Below are positions 25,654 to 63,634 of a DNA stretch of 64,000 nucleotides, piece by piece (the first letter of the stretch is position 1; each line of letters opens with the position of its first letter). The stretch covers positions 26,846,001-26,910,000 of the forward strand of contig CM022673.1 of the NCBI GenBank assembly GCA_012295275.1, written 5' to 3'. A program made the translations under genes and the position numbers. Origin of the DNA: Chrysomallon squamiferum (taxonomy: Eukaryota > Animalia > Mollusca). A model generated the notes under the pieces. That model ran no database searches. It saw nothing but the letters and a program-made list of their open reading frames with translations, and was not told the DNA's origin.

Positions 25654-25962
25654 TTATTTTTTGTCATGACCGGAACCTGACCCCGAACCCGAACCTGAAC
25701 TGGAACCAGAACCGGAGCCTGATCCATGTCCACAACTGCAGCACGCCTGGGCCGAAGCGAAAACAAGAACTGAAACTGAAACAAATATAAATATTTAATT
25801 TTTAATTATTTTTTAACCATTTGATCCAATTTTGTTGATATTTCAGGTTTTAGTATTGTAATATATATATATATATATATATATATCCAATAATGATAAT
25901 TATATCCAACTGCAGTATTATGACTTACAGACCAACGAGATGAATATTTTCCTGAAATCCAT
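25654..25962 (-). CDS. Small secreted Cys-Cys/Gly-Ser-rich peptide (51-aa precursor), unit 3
   Basis: Exon 25962-25929 (34 nt, donor GTAAGT) plus exon 25775-25654: MDFRKIFISLVFSVLVFASAQA-CCSCGHGSGSGSGSSSGSGSGSGSGHDKK*; GS run uses varied codons; UTR donor GTACGT after 25618, UTR exon from 25349. Confidence 0.8.
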
Positions 25963-26044
25963 TTTGTTAAAACGAAACACTGTTCAAACTAGACTAGCTG
26001 TTTGCTTACAAAAATGTTGTGATTATGAACAGTTATTTTCATAT

Positions 26045-26070
26045 ATTTATATTAGTAATATGAGGAAACC
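26045..26070 (-). promoter_or_regulatory. TATA box (TATAAAT) with upstream GGTTTCCT motif of the GS-peptide gene (equivalent 41260-41285)
   Basis: About 85 bp upstream of the ATG; same layout as in the other CC-peptide genes. Confidence 0.6.
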
Positions 26071-26427
26071 AAAGCGTATATCCATTGCTATATTTCTCTT
26101 AGTTTCCTTTTCAGTTCACATGTTAAAAAATACATTAAAGAACTGACAAAAGGAAGAATAAAGAAAATAAGGAAAAGAAAGAAAAATGAAAATTAACATT
26201 TTCTAGTTACAGCGTTTACTTCCCTTTATGGTGTGTGTTTTATAGTACTTCATCTTTTATTTGACTTTAATTTTTCATCTTCTTCTCCATAAAATAACAC
26301 AATGGAAATAACAAAATATCAAACGAAACAAACAAATTAATAAAAAATATACAGGTATTATGATTATTTTATTTTAATCAAAATGGATACAATTGATTAA
26401 AGTTTCATTAACTAGTTGCATAGCTCG

Positions 26428-26710
26428 CTCTCTCTCTCTCTCTCTCTCTCTCTCTCTCTCTCTCTCTCTCTCTCTCTCTCTCTCTCTCTCTCTCTCTCTC
26501 TCTCTCTATATATATATATATATATATATATATATATGTATACACATATATACACACACATATGCCTGTAGCTTTCACGCTGTATGCCATAATATATATC
26601 GAGAGAGAGAGAGAGAGAGAGAGAGAGAGAGAGAGAGAGAGAGAGAGAGAGAGAGAGAGAGAGAGAGAGAGAGAGAGAGAGAGAGAGAGAGAGAGAGAGA
26701 GAGAGAGAGA
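26428..26710. repeat. (CT)n, (TA)n and (GA)n microsatellites; the CT and GA tracts are mutually complementary
   Basis: Visible directly. Confidence 0.9.
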
Positions 26711-59603: not shown

Positions 59604-62600
59604 TGGAACGAAAAAAAAAAAAAAAAAACAACAAATTTTTAATTTCACATAGTCAGTGGTGATCCCTTTGTCAGACACTTTCAGTTGTTGCATGATCAGG
59701 AAATCTGTTCACAAAAATACCTGACCTGGTTTTTGTGTTTTATTGTGGTCAGTGAGTTGTATTTTGACTACTGCTTCCATTATAATCTCTAAGTCAAAAT
59801 GATGCAGTGTCATTATTGATGCTACATATTTTTAAATGTTTATGGTATATATATTTTTAGATTTAGGATGGTATGTAATCCATTATTTCACAGACAGTGT
59901 CGTACTCAATTTGAAAACAATGTGTTATGTTCACCATCATTTTCAGTTAATGATTATTAATGACAGTTTTGTTTATGATTTAGTAATGAAATAACTAGTG
60001 GCATTCGGGAAAAATGTAAATATTATTCAAATGAACATATGTATGTATATATATATATATCACTATATAGAGATGTACATACATATTTAGAACATACATA
60101 AACACATGAATATATAGATACATACAAACATATACATACATATTATAGATACATACAAACATAGATATACAACAAACAAACATATACATATGTATATGTA
60201 TATACATACATACAACATTACATATATATACACACATACATAAATGTGTATAGACTGATATGCTTGTATTCATAGAAATTTCTTTCACAGAAATAAAATG
60301 TTGATTGATGATGAAGACCAAATCAGGCATTAATTAAAAAAACCTACCTCAAATGATCATCAGCTTAATTATTACATTATCATTCTTGATTTTATAACAA
60401 TTCAGATGGAAGGTATCATTTTTTTTTTAAATACATGAAATAAACATTAAAATTCTGTGTTATTAATTGCCTAATAACTAGGCAGGTTGATTTCATGTTT
60501 ATTTTGAAGATTTCAGAAGTTTTCATTTTAAAACAATACACCAGATTTTAAATGCCAGATTAAAAGAATATGGCAAAAGCATAATTTTAAAATAAACATA
60601 TCAATTTTTAATTCCATGAAAGTAAATTTAACTTTTTTTTTTTTTTTTAACCTTTTAGAAATCAGTTTATTTTCATTATAGACTACTAGAGTGAGATTTT
60701 TAATAAAAACAAATTAATGCAAATGTTTTTTTATTTATATGTAACTACTATTATTTGTTTTAATTATGTTGGGTAATGTTTTAGTAACTATAAAAAAAAT
60801 TTGTCTAAGTTGTTCTGCTTTTTAACAAGAATGAAAATCTAAAACGAGAAACAAACAAGTCTTAAGCAGTCATTTTTGATCATTTCATTTTTAAACTGTA
60901 TTTCCATTTTTCACAATTGCAATATACATCATGATTGTTATAAACAATGATTCAGAAGCTTTATCTAAATGTACATTTCCAATTTTTTGATTTTTGTGAA
61001 ATTATTTTATTTATTGTTATCTTCTTTAAGTATATTATGTTTTGATTTCATTCTAAATTCATTAAAAAGCCCTCCCTACTTAATAAAAAAAATTCATTCT
61101 TTCAGATACTTTTCTTTTCATTAATGTTACTATTTGTTCAATAAAACTTTATTTACAAATACTTATTGATGATAATTTTGTTTTGCTACCAATATAAATA
61201 TTTACAAACAACAGATTTTGGTATGAAAGTTATTATTAACCAAACCACTGTCTCCCATTATTAACAGAAAAGAATCTATTCTACTCTCACATTCAGTAAA
61301 ACGCATATCAAGACCTTTGATAAATAGTATTCATTTCTGGCAGATGCAGAATAATGTTATTTTCTATTTAATTTTAATTTACAATTGCTCAACACTTTTT
61401 TCGGAATTGCTCTCTTTGTCATTGCTCATATATGCATGAAATTTGCTTGCCAGGTTTTATTTCATAATCGTCGTAACTGAACTGTAAACTCATGCATGAT
61501 TTTAAAAAAAATCATAATAATTTAAAAATAAAGTCACACTTGTCTTCTTTGTAACTGTTTCACTTTTGAAATAATTGTATTCACACGCAGACGTCTTTGT
61601 AAGTGTTTAAAATGTTTTCAATTCTAGTCAGATAAAATTCTAGACAAAGGATTCTACGTTTGAAAGAATGAAGACTCCAGGTTCTGATTGAATGATGATT
61701 ATTTTATCATCCAGTCGGGCGATTTTTCATCATTTTATTAGCACAAATGATCATGTTATCTATAAGATAAATTGCACAGCTGCCATCACATTATTATGAT
61801 TATTATTATTATTATTATTATTGAATTGTGTTACAAATTAGATAACGTCTTCAGGATTAAAACTGATGTAAGGAGATGGAGATGGTTTTATTTTTGAAAC
61901 GGTACGTGATTGTAAAATGGTAATAAACACTTTATAATCTATATAATTGTTGTTTGTTGTATCAGCATTTGGATTAACATGAATCGTTTAGGTTTATTAT
62001 TATATTTACAAGTTTTTTGTGTGTGTGTGTTTTTTTTTTCCATTTTATTGTTTACATTTGTTCGTATTTTTGATGATAAATATTAACAATAAACTAAAAG
62101 TCACAAAACAAAAAATTAAATCTTGTTATTAACAAAATACTCAAACTTTTCTTTTCTGCACTATATTTTCAAGAAAGCTATTAAATATGTACAAATTTTG
62201 TTGCAATATGAATTTAATTCTTATCTTTGTAATTTTGAAGTTCACTTGTAAAGCAACCTGATAATTACAATAATTATATTACTGCATGATCCAGTGAATA
62301 TAATATAAAAAAAATAAAATAAAAAAATAAAAAAAAAAAAAAAAATGTATATATATTTATATATTAATATTTTTAAAATATCAATTATTTATTAATGAAG
62401 TAAAGACTAACATCGTGTGTGTTTATTACATTCTTTATCTGACAGTGCTAGCTAGTAAATAATATTAACAGTTTTTATTTAGGTAATGTTGAAACAGAGT
62501 AACCTACTTACTGTCCTTTTGCCTGCTTTATATTAAACGCATTGCCTATAATAAATTATGTGTATTAAATTTCATTTATATTTTAATCTTATAATACTTA

Positions 62601-62825
62601 TATTCAAACCGAAAAGATTAAACTCTGCATGAACTATTTTTATGTATGATAGAAAATGCGGTTAAACCAAAACCAAAGCGAAAAATAAAACGACAAACAC
62701 TTTAAAAATTAAAAAAAAAATTATTTTAAAGTATTACGTATCTTAAGATATAAGAGTTATAAAGAGAGTGAACTGAAGGAAGATTAATAAATAAATATAA
62801 AGATGATCTCCTCCCCAAAATTTGA

Positions 62826-62849
62826 GGTTTCCTTGTTTTTAATATAAAA
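62826..62849 (+). promoter_or_regulatory. GGTTTCCT motif plus TATAAAA box of the poly-Cys peptide gene
   Basis: TATA at 62843, 93 bp upstream of the ATG. Confidence 0.65.
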
Positions 62850-62935
62850 GCGCGGATGATCTAACATAAAGTGATTTCTGAAGACAAGTGATACAAACAA
62901 AACTGTGAACTCAAATTACGCGAAGAAAGAAGAAA

Positions 62936-63634
62936 ATGAATTTTGCAAAAATTCTGACTGTTGTTTGCCGTAAGTTTTTTTTATTTATTTATTTATTTAT
63001 TTATGTATTTGTTGTTTTTGTTGCCGATTTTTAAAATTTATTTAGACGACTCTCTCTCTCTCTCCCTCTCTCTCTCTCTCTCTCTCTCTCTCTTATACAT
63101 TACCCCCCACACACACACACACACAGTTAGTTATGGAGTTAGAAGACCTAGATATAAAACAAAGAAAACAGACGTTCGGATATAAGTAAAAATTAATTAT
63201 TTTGTAAAGTATTCCATAGTTACTTAGAAACAGAAACCAGGCTCTTTATAAGTATTTTTATTATTATTATTATTATTATTATTATTATTGTTATTATTGT
63301 TTTATTGTTTTTGTTGTTGTTATTATTATTATTATTATTATTATTATTATTATTATTATTATTATTATTGATATTATCGTGGCATCATATTTCAGGATAA
63401 ACAAATTCTAAGATACAATTATTTAACATAAATTAGATAAAATATATTTTATTCAGTTTTTTGCTGCATCATTTACCTTTAAAAATGCTTTGTTAATATT
63501 TTAAATTAAATATTTTCTTTTCTCTCTCTTTTTTTTTTTTCGTTTTTCATTCAGTTGCAGTTTCAATATTTGCGGCTGCCGATGCTTGCTGTTGCTGTAA
63601 ATGTTGTAAGTGTTGCTGTTGCGACAAGAAGTAG
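62936..63634 (+). CDS. Tiny secreted poly-cysteine peptide (37-aa precursor, mature CCCCKCCKCCCCDKK)
   Basis: Exon 62936-62969 (34 nt, donor GTAAGT) plus exon 63555-63634 after a long pyrimidine tract: MNFAKILTVVCLAVSIFAAADA-CCCCKCCKCCCCDKK*; UTR donor after 63672, acceptor before 63968. Confidence 0.85.

Follow-up and report, generated by a model that had tools for sequence, protein, structure and literature searches.

Four short genes predicted to encode secreted CCxC peptides share one signal and promoter plan in a gastropod genome

Conopeptide precursors consist of a signal, a pro-peptide and the mature peptide (PMC7900195). The MgCRP-I peptides of Mytilus have the Cys array C-C-CC-C-C, a pro-region of about 15 residues that ends in KR or RR and a phase-2 intron before the mature exon (PMC4558851). 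Mollusc metallothioneins are intracellular and contain about 15–30% Cys (PMC7826182), and the Cys-rich mussel proteins mfp-16 to mfp-19 have been proposed as the sulfur-rich, iron-bearing matrix of the byssus cuticle (PMC7018715). We have analyzed 64,000 nucleotides of contig CM022673.1 (GenBank assembly GCA_012295275.1, positions 26,846,001 to 26,910,000 of the forward strand), called the window from here on and numbered from its first letter. The original prediction had placed in it an unannotated family of small secreted peptides that start with Cys-Cys and resemble no named family. The gene anatomy, the homology of the signal-coding DNA, the signs of constraint and the blank searches described below support that view. 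Judged by sequence comparison, the four genes apparently form a real and undescribed family of lineage-restricted, secreted, Cys-rich mollusc peptides that belongs to no family with which it was compared.

The four genes, numbered 1 to 4, start at the ATGs at 25962, 41177 and 51558 on the minus strand and at 62936 on the plus strand. In every one, 34 coding nucleotides are followed by a GTAAGT donor, a pattern with four matches in the window against 0.82 expected and never reaching four in 100 shuffles. The first intron is in phase 1 (153, 140, 485 and 585 nt in genes 1 to 4) and ends at acceptors 25775, 41003, 51039 and 63555, giving precursors of 51, 51, 118 and 37 residues. A second AG lies 6 nt downstream of the acceptor in every gene; its use would shorten the leader to 20 residues and leave the mature peptide unchanged. 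The TATA boxes lie 89, 89, 82 and 93 nt upstream of the ATGs, within the proposed 80–95 bp. All splice junctions are predictions from splice signals.

In gene 1 (minus strand) the promoter, with a GTTTCCT motif and the TATA box, is at 26046..26069, as located, like the other three promoters, by a match to the motif-pair pattern described below. The first coding exon (25929..25962) encodes the first half of the signal, and the coding part of exon 2 (25654..25775) holds the signal remainder, CCSC, a Gly/Ser linker, HDKK and the stop. Gene 2 (minus) has its promoter at 41261..41284, a first coding exon of the same sequence as that of gene 1 at 41144..41177, and an exon 2 coding part at 40882..41003 that ends in HDQK. 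Gene 3 (minus) has its promoter at 51633..51651, its 34-nt first exon at 51525..51558, an exon 2 with the signal remainder, a Cys head and a His block at 50858..51039, and a third exon with 46 polar residues and the stop at 50255..50395. Gene 4 (plus) has its promoter at 62827..62848, its 34-nt first exon at 62936..62969 and, at 63555..63634, the exon 2 coding part for the signal remainder and a 15-residue mature peptide. A second intron had been claimed for all four genes. It is predicted in all of them and is coding only in gene 3; elsewhere splice signals place it in the 3' untranslated region (UTR), at 25617–25350 in gene 1 (non-coding exon 3 from 25349; whole feature 25150..25617, minus), at 40845–40351 in gene 2 (exon 3 from 40350; 40135..40845, minus) and, least certainly, at 63673..63967 (plus) in gene 4. 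Upstream of genes 1 and 2 there is a second TATA-like site with a GT and a pyrimidine-rich AG (26140–26250 and 41340–41465, both minus), which might serve as an alternative promoter followed by a short intron in the 5' UTR.

The predicted splicing gives all four genes a hydrophobic leader of exactly 22 residues (hydropathy 2.9–3.1 over 10 residues), ending in SAQA, SAQA, SAQG and AADA with CC directly after, just as had been proposed. Under the -3/-1 rule for signal cleavage, the cut after residue 22 is the sole site allowed in all four genes, and a cut after residue 20 is allowed in genes 1, 2 and 4. With the cut at 22, all predicted mature peptides begin C-C-x-C. The mature part lies on exon 2 together with half of the signal peptide, and there is neither a propeptide nor a dibasic site.

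Past this common start the peptides have little in common. The mature peptide of gene 1 has 29 residues, with 3 Cys, 21 Gly plus Ser, 8 SG dipeptides and 2 His, and that of gene 2, of the same length, has 3 Cys, 2 His and the same kind of Gly/Ser chain. Gene 3 would give 96 residues, with 8 Cys in the first 11, 6 His in the following 18 and, in the last 46 (its exon 3 tail), 11 Ser/Thr, 9 Asp/Glu and 7 Lys/Arg. Gene 4 would give only 15 residues (about 1.7 kDa), of which 10 are Cys. Cys thus makes up 10, 10, 8 and 67% of the mature peptides of genes 1 to 4, and the numbers (3, 3, 8 and 10) and arrays (CC-C in genes 1 and 2, CC-CCC-CC-C in gene 3, CCCC-CC-CCCC in gene 4) form no common framework. 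The tails are low in complexity and the net charges, +0.5, -0.5, -1.6 and +2.2, are near neutral except in gene 4. The DKK ending that had been noted in two of the peptides is found in genes 1 and 4, gene 2 ending in DQK. Small size and the basic C-terminal pair of genes 1 and 4 might fit signalling or gamete-surface peptides freed directly by signal cleavage, and some hormones have a Cys at the mature N-terminus. We regard this as the least probable of the explanations considered here, since the peptides have neither an amidation glycine nor repeated copies and gave no Pfam match, and the mature sequence is not conserved beyond CCxC.

Because patterns taken from the genes themselves are circular, we wrote a generic scanner for secreted genes that requires a TATA box, a short open first exon, a GTRAG donor, a pyrimidine-rich acceptor and a signal-like N-terminus but neither a 34-nt exon nor cysteine, its thresholds being chosen after the genes were known. 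In the window it returned exactly these four ATGs and no other, while 20 shuffled windows gave two ATGs in total, neither with CC at the cut. All four promoters have GTTTCCT just before the TATA box; this pair, a pattern derived from the four genes themselves, occurs four times in the window where 0.11 would be expected. GTTTCCT alone occurs nine times, six of them in these promoters, where genes 1 and 2 each have one more copy, reversed, some 35 nt upstream of the other. The motif, which we take to resemble the GGAAA core of ETS or NFAT sites, suggests common regulation of the four genes. A microsatellite artefact was considered and rejected, as the Cys codons mix TGT and TGC.

The coding parts also look different from their surroundings. 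Exons have a GC content of 0.44–0.52 against 0.18–0.30 in introns, and in exon 3 of gene 3 the spliced frame is open for 46 codons, the other frames for 6 and 1. Between genes 1 and 2, none of 78 positions in the signal and CCxC codons has changed, while promoter, introns and UTR together differ at 35 of 599 (Fisher p=0.012); over the whole coding region the figure is 3 of 156 (p=0.028 versus non-coding). When contigs of one sequencing run (X1) were compared with gene 3, 0 of 204 coding positions and 10 of 454 intron positions differed (p=0.024), and a variant promoter that carries 7 substitutions and 8 inserted nucleotides has kept its TATA box intact. These contigs cover the intron and hence reflect DNA; the run is possibly the source sample and the contigs may mix alleles, which makes this a weak, non-independent hint. 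Three sets of RNA contigs compared with gene 3 gave only chance matches of 18–36 nt in the intron and no exon cover, which we count as neutral. That the genes are silent or decaying, or that splice-like motifs fell into this order by chance, seems quite improbable. The lack of RNA evidence speaks for it, as do signs of decay in the array, where two copies of the gene 1/2 type are truncated and a neighbouring gene is frameshifted. Against this, three independent loci have the promoter motif, exon length, phase and CCxC in common, the frames are open, exon and intron GC contents are far apart and the coding DNA is less changed. We conclude that the genes are very probably real and their products secreted.

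The four genes are also related to each other. Genes 1 and 2 differ at 3 of 156 coding nucleotides (G>S, K>Q and one silent change) and are recent segmental duplicates. Between the three types (genes 1/2, gene 3 and gene 4) 34, 32 and 39 of 63 signal-coding nucleotides are identical in ungapped comparison with the ATG omitted, values reached by 0, 13 and 0 of 100,000 shuffles. Past the CCxC codons identity between types is only 13–16 of 45. The claim of very different mature peptides is therefore right for three types that diverge after CCxC, not for four, genes 1 and 2 being near-identical. These two lie inside a tandem segmental duplication, and genes 3 and 4 are outside it, on opposite strands, flanking a tetraspanin gene. 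The duplication occupies 1–48400 and consists of about five units of 10–15 kb with 80–98% identity; the array continues beyond the left end of the window, its units have internal deletions, and a 56-nt tandem repeat is found near 29.3 kb and at 43.1–43.6 kb. Two remnant copies of the gene 1/2 type are present on the minus strand, at 2903..3460, with part of intron 2 and exon 3 only, and at 15395..15798, with an identical junction. Both are without the approximately 1.65 kb that hold the promoter and exons 1 and 2, and we infer that this was a deletion, hence a birth and death of copies.

A conserved signal, a divergent mature region and birth and death of copies are what would be expected of defence, toxin-like or symbiont-control peptides in the style of conotoxins, MgCRP-I, legume NCR or aphid BCR peptides, and the cationic gene 4 product (+2.2) would fit too. 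Like conotoxins, the snail genes are short and multi-exon, with a conserved signal and a variable Cys-rich mature part, and with MgCRP-I they also share a phase-1 intron inside the signal (PMC4558851). The parallel is loose, however. In contrast to the conotoxin plan there is no pro-region or dibasic site ahead of the mature part, CC coming right after the signal in all four genes, the mature part is not on an exon of its own and no Cys framework is shared; the Cys arrays also differ from that described for MgCRP-I, whose pro-region is likewise missing, and signal and mature part lie together on exon 2. Genes 1 to 3 are near-neutral and low in complexity, and Pfam and PDB gave no match for the family. 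Conotoxin superfamilies are recognized by signals at least 75% identical, and here queries from exon 2, rather than the spliced signal, gave no match in these two databases. The pattern of conotoxin and defence-peptide families that had been seen in the locus thus holds for the conserved signal and divergent mature part and fails for the propeptide, the mature-only exon and the shared Cys framework. We consider a role in defence or symbiont control unlikely.

Searches for relatives were blank; the original prediction had recognized no named family either. The protein queries were short, biased exon-2 stretches, some extended by in-frame intron residues and never the spliced precursor, so that their sensitivity was low and the negatives are weak. 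None of three exon-2 queries matched Pfam at E<=1; CFAP143, at E=1.7 with queries that included in-frame upstream residues and gene 3 exon 3, was rejected as chance. Against the longer members of a set of 5.8 billion proteins (proteins of 33–105 residues excluded), gene 3 exon 2 gave 0 of 18 candidates at E<=10. A four-row alignment gave 0 of 2461 candidates against the 5.8 billion proteins, and a profile gave none at E<=0.001 among 1.84 billion representatives. PDB sequences gave no match, the ESM Atlas no usable match for the gene 3 and gene 4 queries, and Rfam none. In metagenome contigs 0 of 599 pattern matches were confirmed and the family DNA pattern had no match. A literature search, with most subscription papers outside its reach, found no description of the family. 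One survey of mollusc mantle secretomes dropped open reading frames (ORFs) below 50 residues (PMC5400390), a cut-off that would have removed gene 4 with its 37 residues.

The reading that we prefer, tentatively and with a probability of about 0.45, is that CCxC is a thiol anchor which, with exchangeable tails, would cross-link a secreted coating in the manner proposed for mussel mfp-16 to mfp-19. Metal binding, cross-linking and defence had all been listed as possible functions; the anatomy favors the first two over the third and demonstrates none. The shared promoter motif would be consistent with co-expression in one gland or secretory epithelium. The peptides would enter the secretory pathway and be cleaved after residue 22, which would leave CCxC at a free N-terminus, and the Cys head could then link chains by disulfide or metal-thiolate bonds in a coating such as periostracum, scale, operculum or mucus. 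Interchain linking is favored because the Cys cannot all pair within one chain, their number being odd in genes 1 and 2 and gene 4 having runs of four. The gene 4 product might thus be a pure cross-linker with no tail. In genes 1 and 2 the anchor would be joined to a flexible Gly/Ser spacer that may bear sugars or phosphate, and in gene 3 to a His block that would form metal cross-links and to a hydrated Ser/Thr-rich tail. The tails would likely set the properties of the coating.

Several described proteins offer parallels to such a coating. The mussel proteins mfp-16 to mfp-19 and mfp-6 are secreted, Cys-rich and proposed to cross-link a coating, to bind iron via sulfur and to buffer redox (PMC7018715, PMC9999432). 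The snail peptides likewise combine a predicted signal with a Cys-rich mature part. Unlike the mfp system, which is bivalve and was compared by description only, no Tyr-rich DOPA partner is found in the window. Mollusc mantle secretomes are dominated by lineage-specific low-complexity secreted proteins, and shematrin, KRMP and lustrin A are, like the peptides described here, young, taxon-restricted, secreted, low in complexity and fast-changing (PMC5400390). The predicted secretion, the Gly/Ser repeat and the lack of a homologue (blanks being weak for such short queries) place the family near this class; it differs in having no sequence match to them, far shorter peptides (15–96 mature residues) and the N-terminal CCxC. 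In velvet worm slime, the proteins ES_P1/P2 have GS-rich domains and terminal Cys that join chains (PMC9999432). By analogy, the Gly/Ser-rich stretch of genes 1 and 2 with its terminal Cys could form interchain disulfides. SG repeats occur also in serglycin and CCP-type motifs in keratin-associated proteins. In contrast to the snail peptides, the slime, serglycin and keratin-associated proteins either are far larger or are not secreted; with no similarity detected, the likeness is an analogy only.

A number of points weigh against cross-linking of a coating. The case is built on DNA sequence, with the signal peptides assessed by hydropathy and the -3/-1 rule. No homologue links the peptides to any matrix protein. 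Searched for six short motifs, three of the four supplements of a proteome study of peltospirid shell and scales (PMC11871041) contained none, though these tables may hold no sequences. The coding changes between genes 1 and 2, two non-silent and one silent, are too few to speak of selection on the tails. Finally, thiolate clusters would account for the crowding of Cys equally well.

The window offers some indication of the host. A tetraspanin-4/9-like gene at 55862–59603 (plus), between genes 3 and 4, is intact, with seven exons and 247 residues. It is identical to that of Gigantopelta aegis at 222 of 247 positions (89.9%), of Haliotis rufescens at 196 of 247, and to the other rows at 54–72% (14 of the 16 database matches were used, one partial and one fragment being left out). 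In the tree, the node among Gigantopelta, Haliotis and Patella was not resolved. On this tetraspanin identity, the host is likely a neomphaline, possibly a vent peltospirid. A conoidean host is not indicated, identity to Littorina being 71.7% and a supported caenogastropod clade excluding the snail gene, so that, unlike the sources of conotoxins and MgCRP-I, the host is neither conoidean nor mussel. The gene is also a useful synteny anchor for locating the cluster in related snails.

Each unit of the tandem array also carries a gene on the strand opposite to the CC genes, with three exons and a predicted small secreted protein of about 150 residues (plus strand; copies at 9131–12400, 21188–22690, 31893–37700 and 45382–47450, and a last exon near 290). 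It has two repeats ending in DYCR, W.DV.G.G..NDYCR and D.NGDGRDDYCR, which we presume to be reminiscent of FG-GAP repeats; exons 1 and 2 splice in frame in three of four copies, the one at 31893 being frameshifted in exon 1. No match to this protein was found in Pfam, PDB or prokaryote genomes, the collections that the search covered. That CCxC is part of this DYCR-repeat gene was rejected, given the opposite strand and different exon plan. MULE transposase ORFs at 33046–34191 and 9965–10429 (both minus; Pfam PF10551, E=1.7e-11 and 6.2e-05) sit in the first intron of two of its copies, with a frame of 381 codons open. Broken reading frames at 13266–14011, 23487–24340 and 47880–48525 (plus) gave no Pfam match for the two pieces searched; by their reverse transcriptase and GIY-YIG-like wording, judged by eye, they resemble retroelement remnants.

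A vent host bears on one further explanation, that the peptides are secreted chelators, exported counterparts of metallothionein and phytochelatin that would move Cd, Cu, Zn, Fe or sulfane sulfur into mucus or hard parts. The 10 Cys of gene 4 equal in number those of the gamma domain with which limpet metallothionein binds 4 Cd (PMC7826182), gene 3 has 8 Cys and 6 His together, the closest tetraspanin is that of a vent peltospirid, and secretion of sulfur into the scales has been reported for a related snail (PMC7142155, PMC9156901). CC and CxC motifs and a very high Cys content are further likenesses to metallothioneins. However, metallothionein spacing is fixed, as in CCx5CCx4CCx6CCx7CC and the beta1 and beta3 domains (PMC7826182, PMC11101346), and compared by eye, with the delta motif left out, the gastropod spacings described there fit none of the four peptides, for which Pfam gave no match either. 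The CC pairs are 4–7 residues apart in the gamma domain and 0–1 in gene 4, and the metallothioneins described are intracellular, unlike peptides with a predicted 22-residue signal. Genes 1 and 2, with no more than 3 Cys each, have a long Gly/Ser chain that a chelator would not require. Besides, free thiols would tend towards oxidation in the secretory pathway. We therefore consider secreted chelators possible, if somewhat unlikely, and the strongest competitor of the cross-linking reading. Cross-linking and chelation overlap, because thiolate-metal bonds can act as cross-links. A combined scheme, improbable in our view, would be a secreted polycysteine system of a vent snail that carries reduced sulfur or metals out and fixes them in the coating as an organic sulfur scaffold for metal sulfides.

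A secreted peptide that is two-thirds Cys is chemically extreme, and it is easy to synthesize and test. Peptides of this kind are shorter than gene callers and secretome surveys accept, and a whole gastropod family may therefore have been missed. The anchor-plus-tail layout would mean that a single cassette of signal and promoter can serve secreted peptides of very different kinds. In the case of a vent peltospirid host, the four genes are concrete candidates for the cross-linking of its coating or for the export of sulfur or metal. Under the polycysteine scheme, if true, they would represent a secreted equivalent of metallothionein and phytochelatin, and the still unidentified carrier with which a peltospirid host brings sulfur into its hard parts might be found among them.

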